DNA of 64,000 nucleotides from Escherichia phage vB_EcoM_G4498: sequence record NC_054918.1; one strand, given 5' to 3'. The position numbers and the translations under genes are program-made. Numbering within the stretch: position 1 is the first letter of the stretch; every line of letters begins with the position of its first letter. Positions 15,281 to 34,673 of this stretch are shown one piece after another. Under the pieces are notes generated by a model that was not told the origin of the DNA, did no database searches, and worked only from the letters and a program-made list of their open reading frames with translations.

Positions 15281-15799
15281 TTAATAACCTCGGTCTTGAC
15301 GAGCGAAATTTTCAGCATTTTTCAGATAATAAAGTTTAAAGATTTCTTCTGCTGTAAGACCAAGACCTTGAAACATGTTCAGAACAAAATGGAGAATATC
15401 AATCATTTCGAATTTGATTTCTAACTGGTCCTGTGGAGACAAATCAGTAATCAGAGTTTCACGACGTTCACCATGCTGAGCTTTCCACGGCTTCCATACA
15501 GCAGATGCATCTTTTTCGCCATTACTCATACCACCAAGAGAAGTCAGAAGTTCGCGGAATTCATCATCAATATAATCTTTCTGATTACGCAGCCAATCAA
15601 CAACTTCACCTGCAGTAGCCAAATCATCAGGATGACGGTTATATTCAGGTTTATCTTTAGCTAAACGAACTTGCAGAGATTTCTGCATATCAAGCATTAC
15701 CTGCAGCGGGTCTTTTTCATCACCGAGAATATCCCAATATTCATTTTGAGCTTTATCAGCGCCTTCGATCAGTTGACTACATTCGTTGAAATGTGGCAT
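15281..15799 (-). CDS. 56: dCTP pyrophosphatase (dCTPase/dUTPase, MazG-like)
   Basis: 172 aa; size and position of T4 gp56. Confidence 0.8.
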   Translation of the reverse strand: MPHFNECSQLIEGADKAQNEYWDILGDEKDPLQVMLDMQKSLQVRLAKDKPEYNRHPDDLATAGEVVDWLRNQKDYIDDEFRELLTSLGGMSNGEKDASAVWKPWKAQHGERRETLITDLSPQDQLEIKFEMIDILHFVLNMFQGLGLTAEEIFKLYYLKNAENFARQDRGY

Positions 15800-15800
15800 G

Positions 15801-16451
15801 TTATTTTTCCTTTCTTATGAAGTTTTCTATCATATGTCTATAGCAGATATTAGGATAACCTGCCTTGACAGCTATTTTATTAAATTTTGTGCGCTTAGGT
15901 CTATTATTATAAACCCATAATTCATAAAGCGCATCATAACTATTCCATATTTCTCCTCGCCTAGGATTTGGTAAACCATATCGAGGTGAATTTTTACCGC
16001 TAAATCTTCCTTTTCGGGCTTTACTCATATTAGCCTTGGCTTCATCGGATATAATTTTACCTTTATGAGCTAGACGCATTTTGGCTTTAGTTTCTTCTGG
16101 GGTCTTTTTGCCTTTAATCCATGACGGCTTGCCATATCTAGGATTATTTTCACCCGAGAAAAGAACAGAGTTTTGGATTTTAAGGGTTTCTATTAATCTA
16201 CTTGTTAATTTAACACCTTTATTATATCGCATTAAATTTACAGCATAATGCAATCCTCTCACATCTGGATATATTTTAGTTAATAATCTATGAGCTATAA
16301 AATGCTCACGCGCAGTTAACTCAACAAGATTGTTTTTGTCATCTGCTCCTCCTATACATCTAGGAATTATATGATGGCGTTCTTTATATCCGCCAAGATG
16401 CCGGCATTTAGCTTTTGTAATTAAAGCCGAGTAAATTTTTTGGTAATTCAC
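15801..16451 (-). CDS. HNH homing-endonuclease-like protein
   Basis: 216 aa; HHIIPRCIGGADDKNNLVELTAREHFIAH HNH motif; NUMOD-like GENNPRYGKP / GKNSPRYG repeats; GTG start with SD AAAGGA. Confidence 0.75.
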   Translation of the reverse strand: MNYQKIYSALITKAKCRHLGGYKERHHIIPRCIGGADDKNNLVELTAREHFIAHRLLTKIYPDVRGLHYAVNLMRYNKGVKLTSRLIETLKIQNSVLFSGENNPRYGKPSWIKGKKTPEETKAKMRLAHKGKIISDEAKANMSKARKGRFSGKNSPRYGLPNPRRGEIWNSYDALYELWVYNNRPKRTKFNKIAVKAGYPNICYRHMIENFIRKEK

Positions 16452-16483
16452 ATATATCCTTTCAATTCATGGGTTAGTAGATT

Positions 16484-21501: not shown

Positions 21502-22657
21502 TTAACTGTTCGAGGTCAGTTTCTAAATCAGCAGCTGATTTACTTTTACTTTCTGGAGATTTAAATTTTTCAACCTTTGAGTTAATCAATTCATCAACTT
21601 CAGCTTCAACAATTTCATTGCTATCAATAGCACCTAACTGATAAGCACGTTTAATAGCATCTCGGAATGGTTGATGCTTAAATAAAGGACCCCAGAATGT
21701 AGTGCAGTTGGTATCTTTTGCACGCCAAGATTTTTCTTCGCGAATCATCTCACCGGTTTCTTCATCAAGAAATTCACGAGCATACCAACCGTTCTTAGGT
21801 TTTACCACGAATCCTAATTCTAGAGCCATATCTAACAATCCAGAATAAGGATCGATACCACCGTCAAATTTAACATCAATAAAGAATTTACTTTTTTCTT
21901 TAACGGTACGAGATTTTTCTACATTTAGAACAAATTGATACCCCTGAAGATCAGAACCATCTTTAATCTGGCGCTTACCGATAATGAATACGGTATCAGC
22001 TGAATACATTACGCCTGTACCACCTGTCATCACGGTTTTACTAAACATTTCAATTGTTTCAATTGTATGGTTAACCGCAACGCACGGAATATTTTTAATG
22101 CTAAAATAAGGAGTAACAATACGGAATAATGACTTCAGTGATTTAGCACGAGTCATATCTGCCACAGATTTTTCATTCAAGGCATCTTCCGTTTCTTTCT
22201 TAGAAGCCATATTACCGATTGAGTCGATGAATACAATAACCTTTTCACCACGCTCAATAGCTTCAAGCTGGTTCACCATATCAATTTTCAGTTGTTCAAC
22301 TGACTGAATCGGCGTATGAATTACTCGTTCCGGGTCAACTCCCATGGATCGCAAATAAGCTGGAGTAATACCAAATTCACTATCATAGAATAGACAAACC
22401 GCGTCAGGATATTTGTTCAAATATGCCGCAACCATAGTCAAAGACATATTTGATTTAAAGTGTTTAGAAGGCCCTGCGAAAATAGTTAAACCAGACTGCA
22501 TACCGCCATCAATCGCACCAGAAATAGCAATATTAAGCATTGGAATTTTTGTACGAATTACATCCTTTTCATTAAAGAATTTAGATGTAGTCAGTTCAGC
22601 AGTCATTTTAGAAGTGGAAGCTTTAATCAAACGGGATTTTAAATCTGCAATAGACAT
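21476..22657 (-). CDS. uvsX: UvsX RecA-like recombinase
   Basis: 393 aa; RecA-fold P-loop GPSKHFKS; size and position of T4 UvsX. Confidence 0.9.
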   Translation of the reverse strand: MSIADLKSRLIKASTSKMTAELTTSKFFNEKDVIRTKIPMLNIAISGAIDGGMQSGLTIFAGPSKHFKSNMSLTMVAAYLNKYPDAVCLFYDSEFGITPAYLRSMGVDPERVIHTPIQSVEQLKIDMVNQLEAIERGEKVIVFIDSIGNMASKKETEDALNEKSVADMTRAKSLKSLFRIVTPYFSIKNIPCVAVNHTIETIEMFSKTVMTGGTGVMYSADTVFIIGKRQIKDGSDLQGYQFVLNVEKSRTVKEKSKFFIDVKFDGGIDPYSGLLDMALELGFVVKPKNGWYAREFLDEETGEMIREEKSWRAKDTNCTTFWGPLFKHQPFRDAIKRAYQLGAIDSNEIVEAEVDELINSKVEKFKSPESKSKSAADLETDLEQLSDMEEFNE

Positions 22658-22735
22658 TCATTTTTTTCCATAGGCATCATTATATTTTCCTCACTGGTTA
22701 AAGATAGAGTAATTATAACACAATAAATTTAGGCA

Positions 22736-23578
22736 TTAATCAACTGCTATTGGATGAATAGCATTAAACTTATGAAATGCTTCTGATTTTTCTTTACGCG
22801 AAACGCACATGCGAAGAACCTTTAATGGCTCGTCTTCTTCACCCAACGATTTTCGTTTTTCAATATTAGAAGTTTTCCAACGAGCTTGCTCTGGAAACTC
22901 TCTATTGATTTGCTCAAGCGCTCTATTATGTTTAGAATTACTACGAATTGAACTGCACCCTCCAGGAGCTTGTGCTTTTCCAGATACAACCAGATATTTG
23001 AACAAGGCCAAATGCGGATAACCTTGATTAATTAAATTGAGAAATGCATACATATCTTCGCACAAATCAATTTTTCCATACCCAATTTGTTCTGTCGTAA
23101 GTTTTCCAAGGTCATACCATGTATTCGTGAATCCATATGAATTTTCACGATAATTACCCCAAGATGAAGTAATTTTAAAAATTGGTAGGCGAGCATGACC
23201 GTGATAATACCCACAATCCATGGCATCTTCGACGTATTGAATCAATTCATAGAACTGTTCACGAGTCAATTGATTGACTTTATCCACACAACGACGATCA
23301 TCTCTTTTTCGCATTGAACTCATACGAATAGTAGTATCATCGTCAATCATCCAGATTCGTTGACCTGCATACATATCAGTAATTGCTTTACGAGTACCGG
23401 CAATTCCATTAACATCATCAGGAATAGTTACAATTTTAGCTTTAGACCCATAGGCATCATAATAAGCTTTTTCTTCATGTTCACGTACTACGATATGAGG
23501 TTCATAATCAGTCGGAAACATATCAAGGGCAGAAACTGCCCCTACACGTTGATAGCTCGGAATTACGAATTGAATCAT
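22736..23578 (-). CDS. glycosyltransferase at the b-gt locus (GT-A-like, DxD); candidate b-glucosyl-HMC-a-glucosyltransferase
   Basis: 280 aa; WMIDDDTT DxD motif; unlike the 351-aa T4 b-gt. Confidence 0.55.
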   Translation of the reverse strand: MIQFVIPSYQRVGAVSALDMFPTDYEPHIVVREHEEKAYYDAYGSKAKIVTIPDDVNGIAGTRKAITDMYAGQRIWMIDDDTTIRMSSMRKRDDRRCVDKVNQLTREQFYELIQYVEDAMDCGYYHGHARLPIFKITSSWGNYRENSYGFTNTWYDLGKLTTEQIGYGKIDLCEDMYAFLNLINQGYPHLALFKYLVVSGKAQAPGGCSSIRSNSKHNRALEQINREFPEQARWKTSNIEKRKSLGEEDEPLKVLRMCVSRKEKSEAFHKFNAIHPIAVD

Positions 23579-24216
23579 TTAAGTGCCTTACATTTGTCAA
23601 AATGGTATCTTGTCATATTTGGCCCACGTCCTTTTAGTCCGCAATGCGGACATATTTTTTCTATCAAATTATGAGGTTTTCCTTTACGATTTTTAGACAT
23701 CGTTTCTTTAATTATTTTAGCTTTTTCTACGCCAAAAATTTCTTCATAAGTTTTACCAGAATTTTCCTTGGCTCGATTTATAATTCCATATGCCTGCTCA
23801 TTTTTACCATACATTGGATTACCTTCGCCTTTCATTCTTTTAGAATGATCAGGACGCTTGATTCCACGAAAGGCATTTCCGCACTTATATCTTTCTTCTG
23901 GAGATAGTTTTTTACCGTACATTCCATTTAATTTGCCTGGAAAACTTCCTCCCCATGCTTCATTCTTTAAATTATATGAATCCGGACAATTAGCAGCATC
24001 TAAACAAGTTAAAATAATTTCTTCAACCTGTCTAAACATTGGTCCTTCATATAATATTTCTTTATTAAAGGATTTTATTCCATATTTCTTTTTAGCATGT
24101 TGCCAAACTACACCCGAACCATCATAATTCGGGTTGTGACCATCATGACTTCCTATATACCACTTTTTAGTTTTAGGATGTTTATACTTATAAACATGCG
24201 GCACATTTACTTCCAT
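23575..24216 (-). CDS. GIY-YIG homing-endonuclease-like protein (Seg-like)
   Basis: 213 aa; N-terminal VYKYKHPKTKKWYIGS...YDGSG; NUMOD-like GKLNGMYGKK / GNPMYGK; C-terminal CPHCG...HFDKC zinc finger. Confidence 0.7.
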   Translation of the reverse strand: MEVNVPHVYKYKHPKTKKWYIGSHDGHNPNYDGSGVVWQHAKKKYGIKSFNKEILYEGPMFRQVEEIILTCLDAANCPDSYNLKNEAWGGSFPGKLNGMYGKKLSPEERYKCGNAFRGIKRPDHSKRMKGEGNPMYGKNEQAYGIINRAKENSGKTYEEIFGVEKAKIIKETMSKNRKGKPHNLIEKICPHCGLKGRGPNMTRYHFDKCKALK

Positions 24217-24947
24217 TTTCCAGTATAATCCTTTTTAGCAATATGAGTCTCACCGGTGTTCCACCAATGGTCAACTAAATAAAACTGATTTTCGTACACA
24301 TGAAGACTTCCAACGTTCCATATAATAGAACCTGCTTTATATTGCCGCGATGGGTCGCCTGCATTCAAATCAGATACTAATTTATCTAGTACGTATTTTT
24401 GCCAAGCATAATCATTACGATAGCCTGCCCAGCAATCATTGCTTCTCATGCTAACAACCGCATTGACTTTCTTATCACGAATCAGGTACTGTACTGTATT
24501 AGTACACATGAAATCTGACATACCATCTTTATTGTAGTCAAATTGCATGGATGGACGAGTATAAATCATGATACCACGCCGAGAATCAGGATTTTGACCA
24601 AGTTCAGCTAAACACATATCATACTGGGCATAGTTATCTTCTGACCAAATAGCCCAACCATAATTCGAGTTAATTTCGCCTTTAGAAGATGCTACCTGCT
24701 GCCAAATCTTTGGTGTTTCACCTGGAATATCTTTAACAAACAAGCTCTTAGATTTATACCATTCAAGTTCACGCTGAATGTATTCATCATTAAGAGCGCC
24801 AAAAATAAACGGTTCATCTGCTACAAATGATGCGCCAATAATTTCAATAGTTTTAACACCAGTTTTATCAACTACGAAATCTTTTTCTTTTAATGCAAGC
24901 CCCAAATGAAGACGGATTTCTTCAACTGTCATAGAGTCACTAATCAT
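24207..24947 (-). CDS. 42: dCMP hydroxymethylase
   Basis: 246 aa (T4 gp42 length); thymidylate-synthase-like fold. Confidence 0.85.
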   Translation of the reverse strand: MISDSMTVEEIRLHLGLALKEKDFVVDKTGVKTIEIIGASFVADEPFIFGALNDEYIQRELEWYKSKSLFVKDIPGETPKIWQQVASSKGEINSNYGWAIWSEDNYAQYDMCLAELGQNPDSRRGIMIYTRPSMQFDYNKDGMSDFMCTNTVQYLIRDKKVNAVVSMRSNDCWAGYRNDYAWQKYVLDKLVSDLNAGDPSRQYKAGSIIWNVGSLHVYENQFYLVDHWWNTGETHIAKKDYTGKWK

Positions 24948-25100
24948 TTAAACCTCAATTGATACATTCATATTTAACTTGTAACAGTAATAAACCCCAA
25001 CCTAAAATAATAGTTGGAATCATAAGAGGAACCGTTACACTATAGTATATACTTATTATAATCATCAAGATTAAAAGCAACACTGTTATAATTTTGCTTT

Positions 25101-25352
25101 TCATTCCTTCTCTCTGATGATAATTACCTGGTTTGGTTGTGCAGACTTTTTAGTTTCACCCGCAATTGACCAAATAAATGTAATAAACCAACCAATAATT
25201 GACCAGTTAAACAGTAAAGACGTGAAAAAGATTCCTACTGTCGATTTTGACCCACGCATCAAAGCAATAAACCATGGAAGCATGTATATAATAATAGCCA
25301 ACACGCCTGAAACTAAAACCATAAAAATTGAACCTGCTACTAAAGTTTCCAT
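25101..25352 (-). CDS. imm: Imm superinfection immunity membrane protein
   Basis: 83 aa with two hydrophobic helices; size and position of T4 Imm. Confidence 0.8.
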   Translation of the reverse strand: METLVAGSIFMVLVSGVLAIIIYMLPWFIALMRGSKSTVGIFFTSLLFNWSIIGWFITFIWSIAGETKKSAQPNQVIIIREKE

Positions 25353-31607: not shown

Positions 31608-31634
31608 ATTTTATAACTAATTTAATAAAGCAAT
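31608..31634 (-). promoter_or_regulatory. MotA-dependent middle promoter for gene 45
   Basis: Minus strand TGCTTTA - about 10 bp - TATAAA, about 30 nt upstream of the gene 45 ATG. Confidence 0.55.
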
Positions 31635-32023
31635 TAACGATTAAAATCAGCCGCAATTGTTTCCGCAACAATTTGAGCAGCAACAATTAGACGTTCATCT
31701 GCATTACCACAATAATCATCTTCAAGGCGTTCACCACATGAAGTCATAATAAATTTAGCACCGGCGTTTAGGGATTCTGTAGTATGTTTGCGCATTAGTT
31801 CAATCCATTTATTACTTACTTCACGATCGATAGCTTCATAATACGCATGACGAGCAGGTGCAGATTTAATTTTGTTCTGAATAACTTCCATTGCGTTATC
31901 AGAAAGAGACAAAACCCATGCTCGACGAATTTTATTTTGGTTTTGTGGATTTGATTCAGAACGCACGTGTTTTGGCTGAATATCTTTTACGTCAACAGTA
32001 TAATTCACAGTAATTTTAGTCAT
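31634..32023 (-). CDS. rpbA: RNA polymerase binding protein RpbA
   Basis: 129 aa at the T4 rpbA position. Confidence 0.7.
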
Positions 32024-32234: not shown

Positions 32235-32242
32235 TATAAATA
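32235..32242 (+). promoter_or_regulatory. late promoter TATAAATA driving the plus-strand HNH gene
   Basis: Exact TATAAATA 34 nt upstream of ATG 32276; SD AAGGA. Confidence 0.6.
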
Positions 32243-32275: not shown

Positions 32276-32992
32276 ATGAATTATAAACTAATTTATGAAA
32301 AGTTAATCTCTAATGCTAAATCTCGAAAACTTGATTGCTATACTGAATCTCATCACATTATACCACGCTGTTTAAACGGTAGTGATGATGCTTCAAACTT
32401 AGTAGATTTAACGCCAGAAGAGCACTATGTAGCTCATCAACTTTTAGTAAAAATTTATCCTTCTGAACCAAAATTAGTCTATGCTGCTAACATGATGACA
32501 GTTTCCACGAAATACGCTAAACGCAACAATAAAACTTTCGGTTGGATTCGTCGTAAACTCTGGGAAATAGAAAAGAACAAAGAATTCTCCCAGGAGACAC
32601 GAAAGAAAATGTCTGATGCAGTAGCTAATAAAGCAAGACTAACTTGTCCTCATTGCGGTAAGTCTGGATTAAGCGGGAATATGAATCGTTGGCATTTTGA
32701 TAACTGTCCAAATCACCCTAATCCTAAAGTTAGACCACCATTGTCTAAAGAACACAGAAATAATATCTCAAACGGGCTTAAAGCAATCGTTCTTGAAGAA
32801 ACATCCTGCGAATTCTGTGGAATGATAGGCAAGAAATGCGTTATCGCAGCGCATAGAAATTTCTGCAAGAAAAATCCAAATGGACGCAAGAAAACTGAAA
32901 AGACTGGTACTTGCGTCCATTGTGGTAAAGTTACCACTTTCGGAAATTTATCAAGATGGCATAATGATAACTGTAAATATAAACCTAGCTAA
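32276..32992 (+). CDS. HNH homing-endonuclease-like protein, plus strand
   Basis: 238 aa; HHIIPRCLNGSDDASNLVDLTPEEHYVAH; repeated CxxCG...W-H-x-D-N-C zinc-finger modules; N-terminal ~70 aa paralogous to the 15801-16451 HNH protein. Confidence 0.75.
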   Translation: MNYKLIYEKLISNAKSRKLDCYTESHHIIPRCLNGSDDASNLVDLTPEEHYVAHQLLVKIYPSEPKLVYAANMMTVSTKYAKRNNKTFGWIRRKLWEIEKNKEFSQETRKKMSDAVANKARLTCPHCGKSGLSGNMNRWHFDNCPNHPNPKVRPPLSKEHRNNISNGLKAIVLEETSCEFCGMIGKKCVIAAHRNFCKKNPNGRKKTEKTGTCVHCGKVTTFGNLSRWHNDNCKYKPS

Positions 32993-34673
32993 TCTTAGCT
33001 AAACTAAATCTACCAACTTTTTCCATCTGAATATGCTGACCATATTCTTGTGGGTCATGGTCTTTATGCGAAATTATGAAGAAGTTGGTATCCTTCAAAC
33101 CATCTAAAATTTTAGCTACATTTTTAATACCTTCAGCATCAAATGCACCGTCATATACTTCATCAAGAAATAAACAGCTTATTTTAACACCTGAAACTTT
33201 TTCAGCAATATCACGCCAAGTAAATAAAAGAGCAATATCAATTCGCGCTTTTTCACCTTGACTGAATGAAGCATAACTAAAATCTTCACGACCACGGGAT
33301 TTAATTGTCTCATTAAATTCTTCATCTAATGTAAACACATAATCCGCTTCCATTATTTTAAGATAATGGTTAATCTGCTTATTAAATAATGGAATGTACT
33401 TTTTAATAATAGCACCTTTAATACCAGAATCTTTGAGCATATCAGTCAAAATTCCTCGGTGGTATTTTTCCATTACTAAATTAGTTTTTGTCTTAACAAT
33501 TTTATCAAGTTCTTCTTGAAGCAGTGCTATTTCATCAGCATGGTCAATAAACTCAGAAGATGCTTTTTCTATAGCTGCTTTAACTTTTTTAGCTTTATCT
33601 ACTGTCGTGATTAGAGATTGCTTTTTATTGCGAATATCATTTGCCAACGACTGCTGGGTTTTAATATTATCTCGGTATTCATCAACAAGAACTTTTAAAT
33701 TATCACGATGTGTTGAAAGCTGTTCAAACGAATGCGTGCATTCAGAAACTTTATCTTTAATTTTAGAAACAACTTTATCACCGGAACTTAATTGCGACAA
33801 ACAGGTTGGACATAATCCACCTTCGTGATACATATTAATGACTTTATTATATGAGTCAATTTTTGATTTAATTAAAACTGCTTCTTGACCGATTTTATTA
33901 AATGCATCAGTCGGGTCTTCATCCAAAACAATATTAACTAATCTTTCATTAGCTTCTTCTATTTCCGATTTTAGCGTTCTAGCTTCTTTTGCCAAATCAT
34001 CGTACATATTTTGCAGACGAGTAAGATTGTCACCCGTTAATTTTTTCTGGCGTTCAACGTTATCATTATATATTTTAATTTGTTGGATAATACTATCTTT
34101 TTTAACATCAAGCACTTGGTTTTGTGAATTTAATTCACGTATTAGTGCTTTATTAAGCTTATCCATTTCAGCTAATGTTCCTACCTCAAGCAGGTCTTCC
34201 ACAAGCTTTCTTCGCGCAGGGGTCGACAAACCCATGAAAGGGGTATACCCTGCTGTACCAAGGACAACAATCTGCTTGAAACTGGCATATGACATTCCGA
34301 TAAGCTGTTCAAATTCTGCTTGGAAATCTTTACTGCTGGCAGATTCATTAAGACGTGTACCGTTAACGGTGATTTCGAAAACGTTTGGTTTTTGTCCTCT
34401 TTTGATATAGTACTTTTTCTCATCATATTCCATCCACAGTTCAACTAAAAGTTCTTTCTTATTTGTGCTGTTTATTAATTGACCTTTCTTTACATCACGA
34501 AATGGTTTGCCAAAAAGCCCAAATGTGATGGCTTCTAACATAGTAGACTTACCACCGCCATTTCGGCCAGTAATAAGAGTTTTTTGAACCTTATCTAGTT
34601 GAATGTCAATAGGATTTCCACCTACTGACATTATATTTTGATACCTAACTCGGTTTAGTTTAAAATTCTTCAC
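32985..34673 (-). CDS. 46: recombination endonuclease subunit (Rad50/SbcC-like)
   Basis: 562 aa; Walker A GRNGGGKST, central coiled coil with CPTC zinc hook, signature FSQGEK, Walker B LFLDE. Confidence 0.9.
   Translation of the reverse strand: MKNFKLNRVRYQNIMSVGGNPIDIQLDKVQKTLITGRNGGGKSTMLEAITFGLFGKPFRDVKKGQLINSTNKKELLVELWMEYDEKKYYIKRGQKPNVFEITVNGTRLNESASSKDFQAEFEQLIGMSYASFKQIVVLGTAGYTPFMGLSTPARRKLVEDLLEVGTLAEMDKLNKALIRELNSQNQVLDVKKDSIIQQIKIYNDNVERQKKLTGDNLTRLQNMYDDLAKEARTLKSEIEEANERLVNIVLDEDPTDAFNKIGQEAVLIKSKIDSYNKVINMYHEGGLCPTCLSQLSSGDKVVSKIKDKVSECTHSFEQLSTHRDNLKVLVDEYRDNIKTQQSLANDIRNKKQSLITTVDKAKKVKAAIEKASSEFIDHADEIALLQEELDKIVKTKTNLVMEKYHRGILTDMLKDSGIKGAIIKKYIPLFNKQINHYLKIMEADYVFTLDEEFNETIKSRGREDFSYASFSQGEKARIDIALLFTWRDIAEKVSGVKISCLFLDEVYDGAFDAEGIKNVAKILDGLKDTNFFIISHKDHDPQEYGQHIQMEKVGRFSLAKIS

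Follow-up and report, generated by a model that had tools for sequence, protein, structure and literature searches.

A Seg-family homing endonuclease gene between gene 42 and ba-gt of Tequatrovirus phages and its linked gene 42 allele

The free-standing endonucleases of phage T4 cut hundreds of base pairs (bp) away from their own genes, inside a neighbouring conserved gene, with co-conversion and marker exclusion as the outcome, and T4 SegA-E are among those reported to be active (PMC2988022). The intron-encoded GIY-YIG enzyme I-TevI cuts CA^AC^G (PMC5009752). Here we describe a locus related to both, in a stretch of 64,000 nucleotides (nt) from Escherichia phage vB_EcoM_G4498 (NC_054918.1), referred to below as the window, which represents a Tequatrovirus of the T2/T6 type: the glucosyltransferase gene downstream of gene 42 is ba-gt, of T2/T6 type, and not the b-gt of T4. 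An open reading frame (ORF) of 213 amino acids (aa), hereafter seg, lies between gene 42 and ba-gt, and an earlier note, made from the letters of the window alone, had described it as a Seg-like GIY-YIG endonuclease gene. Our analysis makes it probable that seg is a Seg homing endonuclease gene carried as a promoter-less cassette, which would spread by intronless homing with co-conversion through a cut in gene 42; the activity, the cut position and the immunity of the gene 42 allele in phages carrying the gene (seg+) are predicted from sequence comparison.

The extent of the ORF in the earlier note, together with its ATG start and its minus-strand orientation, was confirmed (coordinates in Table 1). 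A run of 213 open codons has a chance probability of about 5e-7 at the base composition of the window, and the longest stop-free run in each of 20 shuffles of the window was 103-188 aa. The protein matches PHROG_314, 'homing endonuclease' (2.3e-31). Next, 70 database homologs were gathered, 54 of which were aligned (alignment A1) and used as the source of a profile hidden Markov model (HMM). The proposed GIY-YIG-like N-terminus stood up well: the VYKYK, WYIGS and YDGSG stretches are all found, V8-Y9 and Y20-I21-G22 are 10 residues apart with strands at 7-12 and 19-24 in the AlphaFold model, and among the 54 homologs Y9, Y20, G22 and E65 are at least 90% conserved or invariant while N82 is invariant. 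Searched against the Protein Data Bank (PDB), the A1 profile found the I-TevI catalytic domain (E = 0.0069), pairing Y9 with Y6, Y20 with Y17, E65 with E75 and N82 with N90 of I-TevI (1LN0/1MK0). Congruent with this, the AlphaFold model made on A1 reached a pLDDT of 88.4 and returned I-TevI as its top three Foldseek matches, and the Seg protein has the GIY-YIG alpha/beta fold. A search of the PDB sequences with the single sequence gave a match to a sugar-binding protein only, which we dismissed as chance.

Comparison with the T4 proteins, extracted from NC_000866, places the protein in the Seg family. The A1 HMM scored SegC at 102 bits, SegB at 86, SegE at 81, SegA at 72 and SegD at 69, followed by SegF with 25 and I-TevI with 21, with SegG (7.5 bits) and I-TevII not significant; in BLASTP, the N-terminal domain is 31-38% identical to that of SegC, B, D, A and E (E 3e-12 to 1e-6). 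The Y-x-G-S-G hallmark of the Seg proteins is found as well, as NYDGSG here and GYMGSG in T4. By homology, the ORF belongs to the T4 Seg family of free-standing GIY-YIG homing endonuclease genes, its product being a predicted nuclease; on the same comparison, none of the seven T4 seg genes is its ortholog.

The gene is patchily distributed. With only five close Tequatrovirus loci, IMG/VR offered too small a sample for analysis at the population level, and BLAST identity bands with hand-picked records were used instead. Altogether 76 of the 505 Tequatrovirus records matching the junction (about 15%) carry seg. In most of the records that lack it (seg-), gene 42 runs into ba-gt through an ATGA overlap and the locus is exactly 632 nt shorter, in agreement with the note's view that seg was inserted without a spacer. 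Neither T2 nor T6 has an insert at this junction; in T4, gene 42 and b-gt are separated by a spacer of just 23 nt without a gene, and segA is on the other side of b-gt (uvsX/b-gt). The absence of a seg gene from this place in T4, suggested by the earlier note, was confirmed, and all three T-even phages compared lack it. Presence and absence also occur within one species, Tequatrovirus gee4498, to which both JK23 (seg+) and WilhelmHis (seg-) belong. The gene 42-seg-ba-gt region of the window is 99.9% identical to that of Salmonella phage UAB_60 and of Shigella phage JK23. The Seg protein is full length in 76 records and at least 99% identical in 70 of them, across several species, and the seg DNA is 99.2-99.8% identical between phages with a background identity of 96-98%. 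Because the gene is more conserved than its flanks, these identities indicate a recent horizontal spread.

This pattern also bears on two other accounts of the gene. In the first, seg would be a decaying or inactive homing gene that no longer homes and is kept by its translational coupling to ba-gt or by the rarity of precise deletion. Once fixed, homing endonuclease genes commonly degenerate; seg showed no promoter of its own, and truncated relics do occur at the junction, where the last ~35 codons persist downstream of gene 42 in three loci (L073-L075, 35 aa) and in Klebsiella phage GF (~34 codons). Set against these points are the many full-length, nearly identical copies, the family-wide conservation of the catalytic residues, the greater conservation of seg than of its flanks and a dN/dS of 0.17-0.43 relative to orthologs, values that show seg evolving under purifying selection; we regard decay as very improbable. 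In the second account seg would have been co-opted, with homing secondary, to exclude competing phages, to amplify segments or to regulate the expression of gene 42 or ba-gt by binding DNA. Markers of T2 are excluded by the action of T4 Seg enzymes (PMC2988022), SegB reportedly amplifies anti-defence loci in T6 (PMC13096335), and seg sits within a DNA-modification operon; however, nothing in the data requires such a role, and the sporadic distribution, with its polymorphism within a species, fits a selfish element better, leaving co-option the faintest of the possibilities we considered.

The junction is occupied in a second genus as well. Around 14 records of Klebsiella Jiaodavirus have a 70%-identical ortholog at the same place and around 125 are without it, again with a 632-nt difference. 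In Klebsiella phage vB_KpnM_GF (L007, ~2396-2400), a deletion of ~626 nt, measured against KP185, has taken ~35 codons from the end of gene 42 and ~180 from the beginning of the seg ortholog, and leaves the 34-codon relic beside the glucosyltransferase gene; as a marker of the cut site this deletion was set aside, the record being a 'partial genome', where an assembly artefact is possible, and the truncated gene being essential. Other Jiaodavirus have an unrelated HNH endonuclease gene of 174 aa at the gene 42/glucosyltransferase junction (932..1456 of L182, Klebsiella phage KpnM6E1; also Phi_KR8 and Hyena_ER38), the GTG start of which overlaps the gene 42 stop. Since the HNH gene replaces Seg in some Jiaodavirus, at least two endonuclease families use the junction as a hotspot.

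We then turned to gene 42 itself, where an allele is linked to seg. Over the last 300 nt of the gene (24217-24516) seg+ phages are 95-100% identical to one another and 82-83% identical to seg- RB5 and WilhelmHis, the background being 96-98%, and the seg-linked differences begin at window position ~24459 (gene 42 nt 489). When the 84-nt 3' end of gene 42 was compared with the window, exactly 76 records were at least 95% identical, 7 fell at 90-95% and 425 at 80-90%; the number of records with the linked allele equals that of seg+ records, and allele and seg go together in all 76, a co-conversion signature that exists at the population level only. In sliding comparisons, the identity of seg+ ACG-C40 and MLP2 remains 99-100% across seg and gene 42 and drops to 85-96% just on the ba-gt side, and that of seg- RB5 and WilhelmHis falls to 74-78% in two gene 42 bins. 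The ba-gt side lacks a seg-linked tract, with 93-94% identity right past the junction. In the protein, residues 172-176 of gp42 read CWAGY in seg+ and VVFGF in seg- phages, with further paired blocks (seg+/seg-) of DPSRQ/DSTRQ, ENQ/SRH and, at the tail, TGKWK/NGEWK. As a separate observation, the 5' half of ba-gt (23151..23574) is 93-97% identical whatever the seg status, with a low at 23200-23299 (85-93%), and is more variable than the background.

The association with gene 42 is not confined to these phages. All 16 IMG/VR loci with a Seg homolog of at least 51% identity have a gene 42/thymidylate synthase-type gene directly upstream, at distances of 3-126 nt (440 nt in two loci) and with varying genes downstream, while among the more distant IMG/VR homologs a single one (L120) adjoins a gene 42. 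Taken as a comparison of sequences, these data show that an essential gene 42 segment travels with seg, and that the clade as a whole is tied to gene 42.

The position at which the linked allele begins is shared by three lineages. Relative to seg- phages, the recoded block of the window (Table 1) has AGA AGC in place of CGC TCA, and TGC TGG GCA GGC TAT in place of GTG GTC TTC GGA TTC. In Jiaodavirus, gene 42 of seg+ KP185 is mostly 97-100% identical to that of seg- JD18, JEC and M6E1 up to nt 480, with a single 60-nt bin of 93%, and 67-82% identical from there to the end, and the genus repeats the switch as CWAGY/VVFGY with the same synonymous Arg and Ser recoding (TCA to AGC). Thus, in both genera, seg+ gene 42 diverges from seg- gene 42 only from nt ~489-507 onward. 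The third lineage is uncultured; between its seg+ L104 and seg- L024, 55 differences lie within gene 42 nt 210-489 and one beyond, the last clustered difference being the Arg codon of RSND (nt 487-489 in the numbering of that lineage). The mosaic boundary of all three lineages lies within ~20 nt of the Arg-Ser codons (gene 42 nt 489-507). Of the sites that distinguish the window from RB5 in the final 290 nt of gene 42, seg+ KP185 sides with the window over RB5 at 31:11, compared with 18:29 and 16:22 for seg- outgroups and 9:40 for T4 (Fisher p = 0.0012 and 2e-7). The recoded block also occurs, in the absence of seg, in phages of the PD112 type (7 records), as conversion tracts stopping short of seg would leave.

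A mechanism may be outlined on this basis. When a seg+ phage and a seg-less relative infect the same cell, the enzyme would cut the seg-less gene 42 allele ~215-250 bp upstream of its own insertion point, at or beside the codons of the nucleotide-binding motif M-R168-S-N-D-V-V-F-G-F (window ~24418-24461); double-strand-break repair from the seg+ genome would then copy the recoded, uncuttable 3' end of gene 42 along with the 632-nt seg cassette, the whole process amounting to intronless homing with co-conversion. Cleavage near RSND is predicted because the three lineages switch mosaic state within ~20 nt of the Arg-Ser codons, and the comparison yields a specific expectation: the cut should fall near gene 42 nt 489-530, and a recoded block of 28 nt should make the allele immune. 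For this particular cut site we consider the chances of being right and of being wrong evenly balanced.

The principal competing explanation accepts seg as a genuine Seg gene, with the divergence of the gene 42 3' end mere hitch-hiking and the cut elsewhere, be it at a more upstream site of gene 42, within ba-gt or at the gene 42/ba-gt junction of phages that lack the insert. Crossovers between diverged phages tend to be resolved where the sequence is conserved, and no part of gene 42 is better conserved between genera than the 60 nt preceding RSND (83-85%); in the third lineage (L104/L024), moreover, the tract runs upstream of the boundary and not towards seg. Such resolution would nonetheless have to place the boundary within ~20 nt in three independent lineages and to account for the synonymous recoding of Arg and Ser in both genera, for a ba-gt side devoid of a linked tract and for gene 42, rather than the downstream gene, being the constant neighbour across the clade. 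We therefore judge hitch-hiking unlikely, albeit the most serious of the alternatives.

Several points weigh against homing with co-conversion through gene 42 and should be set beside it. The xWAGY and VVFG[FY] types track the gp42 phylogeny, with several xWAGY loci being without seg, and the linked allele could be no more than hitch-hiking donor DNA, its breakpoints set by the conserved stretch upstream of RSND. With regard to the nuclease, the equivalent of I-TevI R27 falls in a gap of the A1 profile alignment, where Y31-x-G-S-G35 and K44 are found instead; T4 SegA-E share this deviation together with Y-x-G-S-G. Neither the full protein nor aa 1-94 matched the Pfam GIY-YIG models (PF01541, PF19835) at E up to 10, and among the 54 homologs PF19835 (SegE_GIY-YIG) matched 17 and PF01541 8. 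On profile search a GIY-YIG fold was recovered through the family profile, which finds I-TevI and the T4 Seg proteins; the direct Pfam models miss the sequence. Expression of seg is assumed to depend on read-through and translational coupling. Lastly, our literature searches found no paper, experimental or comparative, on a seg gene at the gene 42 junction. In GenBank, some copies are already labelled as homing or 'intron-like' endonucleases (JK23, WL-3, REP2, AugustSocin, ACG-C40), some note a similarity to segC and most are called hypothetical; it is a new, uncharacterised Seg, ordinary for such phages.

The C-terminal half of the protein is equipped differently from the T4 Seg proteins. The NUMOD-like repeats noticed earlier proved to be two copies of G-x-x-N-[GP]-M-Y-G-K, at aa 94-103 and 129-138; the Pfam NUMOD3 model (PF07460) matched them with E = 0.0027 and 18.0 bits, below its gathering cut-off of 20.4 bits, and matched 35 of the 54 homologs (best 4.5e-10). 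The helices that follow (Table 1) are presumed, from the model, to belong to the DNA-binding half; they matched no known family. The C-terminal finger, on the other hand, was not the Cys4 finger of the earlier note but a C2HC knuckle, with three Cys and one His, each of these ligands at least 90% conserved in the 54 homologs and with the spacing of a classical zinc finger; AlphaFold models strands 186-188 and 195-197 and a helix at 201-204. Pfam searches with the whole protein and with each half returned nothing for this finger. A Cys4 linker finger of the I-TevI type was ruled out, the only finger being the C-terminal one (C189/C192/H205/C209). More than 600 stretches of IMG/VR contain the knuckle motif NMxRYHFx[KN], and ORFs sharing only this C-terminal part have N-terminal HNH or orthodox I-TevI-like GIY-YIG domains. 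Because the same C-terminal part is fused to HNH or orthodox GIY-YIG domains, the NUMOD3 and C2HC unit is a portable module, which none of the seven T4 Seg proteins has; being shared with HNH enzymes, it may interest builders of chimeric nucleases.

At its two ends, seg is interlocked with its neighbours, as the earlier note had recognized. Gene 42 ends in AAA TGG AAG TAA, within which the seg start is read as A|ATG|G, and at the other end the ATGA shared by seg and ba-gt repeats the ATGA by which gene 42 and ba-gt overlap in insert-free phages. Gene 42 and ba-gt are both intact, and an Rfam search of 22600-25200 at E up to 1 gave no intron or RNA match; an intron-encoded homing endonuclease was ruled out on these two grounds. 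A scan for sigma-70 promoters gave no more than the chance expectation, the late promoter TATAAATA was not found near seg in the window, and the RNA fold at the seg start codon (z-score -1.06) gave no sign of a sequestered ribosome-binding site. Judging from the junctions, seg looks like a promoter-less cassette read from the early message that runs from gene 42 to ba-gt, and translationally linked at both ends. A different arrangement is seen in an uncultured T4-like phage of IMG/VR (L104, ~2470-2500), where gene 42 and seg are separated by a 54-nt spacer, in which an exact late-promoter consensus, TATAAATA, closely precedes the seg ATG. Within the first 20 codons of ba-gt, a GC-rich hairpin is followed by a T-rich tract (TAGGGGCAGTTTCTGCCCTTG ATATGTTTCC; window 23524..23544, minus strand); it is conserved as well in phages without the insert and in Jiaodavirus, and the annotation of Yersinia phage fPS-2 lists it as a terminator.

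Table 1. Features of the gene 42-seg-ba-gt locus in the window (NC_054918.1, 64,000 nt)
Feature	Position	Strand	Basis
Seg-type free-standing homing endonuclease gene (seg)	23575..24216	-	ORF; PHROG_314; T4 Seg homology; AlphaFold pLDDT 88.4
GIY-YIG nuclease domain, aa 7-90	23947..24198	-	VY9, Y20-I-G22, Y31-x-G-S-G35, E65, N82
Two NUMOD3-like repeats, aa 94-138, GKLNGMYGKK and GEGNPMYGKN	23803..23937	-	Pfam NUMOD3 below cut-off
Helical region, aa 140-177	23686..23799	-	AlphaFold helices 140-152, 157-161, 163-177
C-terminal C2HC zinc knuckle, predicted beta-beta-alpha	23590..23661	-	C189-x2-C192-x12-H205-x3-C209
Seg-linked allele, last ~255 nt of gene 42, putative co-conversion tract	24207..24461	-	Identity comparison
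Recoded block, gp42 M-R168-S-N-D-(VVFGF to CWAGY)-R; candidate cleavage/immunity site	24418..24461	-	Codon comparison
Gene 42/seg overlap, 10 nt (ATGGAAGTAA)	24207..24216	-	seg start inside gene 42 end
seg stop/ba-gt start overlap, ATGA	23575..23578	-	seg TGA over ba-gt ATG
Gene 42, dCMP hydroxymethylase; constant upstream neighbour, presumed target	24207..24947	-	Pfam Thymidylat_synt 1.3e-14
ba-gt, beta-glucosyl-HMC-alpha-glucosyltransferase; downstream neighbour	22736..23578	-	PHROG_842 2.8e-89; Pfam TAGT

Other endonuclease-like genes were noticed along the way. On the plus strand of the window, at 32276..32992, lies a second free-standing endonuclease-like ORF of 238 aa, opposite in strand to its neighbours, an rpbA-like gene (31634..32023, minus strand) and gene 46 (32985..34673, minus strand). 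It combines an HNH-like N-terminus (ESHHIIPRCLNGSDD…EEHYVAH) with three C-x2-C…H-x3-C knuckles like that of the gene 42-associated Seg, had no Pfam match at E up to 0.01, was found by the A1 HMM at 4.9e-17, and has an exact T4 late-promoter consensus TATAAATA at 32235..32242 on the plus strand, 34 nt upstream of its ATG. A 221-aa stop-to-stop frame at 15804..16466 on the minus strand matches NUMOD3 (1.1e-6) and, weakly, HNH (1.9e-3); part of it is 32% identical to the C-terminal region of SegA, and it lies at about the coordinates of T4 segF (15606-16280, between genes 56 and soc), a correspondence by coordinates alone. Escherichia phage PD112, which is without the gene 42-associated seg, carries, between uvsX and ba-gt, a segA-like homing endonuclease gene of 221 aa (L096, 2967..3632), and the PD112 uvsX is only 87.6% identical to that of the window, compared with ~98% in other phages, which fits a SegA-linked conversion of uvsX. 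In Escherichia phage RPN226 (L094, 1187..3559), the uvsX region is annotated as three ORFs, of 648 nt, 714 nt and 930 nt, the last 'RecA-like'; the split suggests an insertion, an intron or another endonuclease gene, inside uvsX.

The candidate cut site permits a further, more speculative comparison, gp42 being a paralog of thymidylate synthase. Exon 1 of T4 td ends in …TAT CAA CGC TCA GTA GAT GTT TTC TTG GGT, followed by the intron, and the I-TevI site corresponds to the Q-R codons of QRSVDVFLG|LPFN in td; the recoded block of gene 42 (ATG CGC TCA AAT GAC GTG GTC TTC GGA TTC) occupies the homologous position of the fold. To our knowledge, Seg cleavage motifs are not known to follow the CNNNG rule of I-TevI. 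Tentatively, the Seg lineage may be a dCMP hydroxymethylase specialist that cuts the R-S-x-D codons, the position used by I-TevI and I-BmoI in td and thyA, and carries the recoded 3' end of gene 42 between Tequatrovirus, Jiaodavirus and uncultured T4-like phages; we put this forward while leaning somewhat towards its being wrong. If true, free-standing and intron-borne GIY-YIG enzymes would target one active-site motif in parallel, and a segment of an essential DNA-modification gene would be exchanged across genera by homing; if confirmed, it bears on how GIY-YIG endonucleases choose and switch targets. Taken alone, seg adds a further seg-like gene to phages in which such genes are known to abound, and would not surprise a specialist. 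The tie of the Seg clade to gene 42 spans at least three T4-like lineages, and the seg+ and seg- members of one species are a natural system for homing crosses.

Among described enzymes, the closest are T4 SegC, B, A, D and E, which share a homologous N-terminal nuclease domain with GIY, YIG and Y-x-G-S-G and, like seg, are free-standing, lie in the same orientation between conserved genes and are sporadically distributed; they differ in locus, gene 42/ba-gt here and uvsX/b-gt for T4 segA, and in the C-terminal half. T4 segF (gene 56/soc) is likewise a promoter-less cassette, overlapping gene 56 by 11 nt where seg overlaps gene 42 by 10 nt. SegF and SegG (gene 32/59) cut inside a neighbouring gene far from their insertion and drag flanking markers along (PMC2988022), a behaviour predicted for seg too. 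The sequence similarity to these two proteins is weak or absent, however, and cleavage and co-conversion are experimentally shown there, whereas here they are predicted. I-TevI of the td intron and its isoschizomer I-BmoI of the thyA intron are intron-encoded, in contrast to the free-standing seg, whose product is also without a Cys4 linker finger, and they cut 23-25 bp from the insertion point as opposed to the presumed 215-250 bp here. Finally, SegH/Hef reportedly replaces mobE/mobC as alternative homing endonuclease genes at one locus, resembling the gene 42 junction in that different endonuclease genes, Seg or the 174-aa HNH of Jiaodavirus, occupy a single place, although the loci and the proteins are others.

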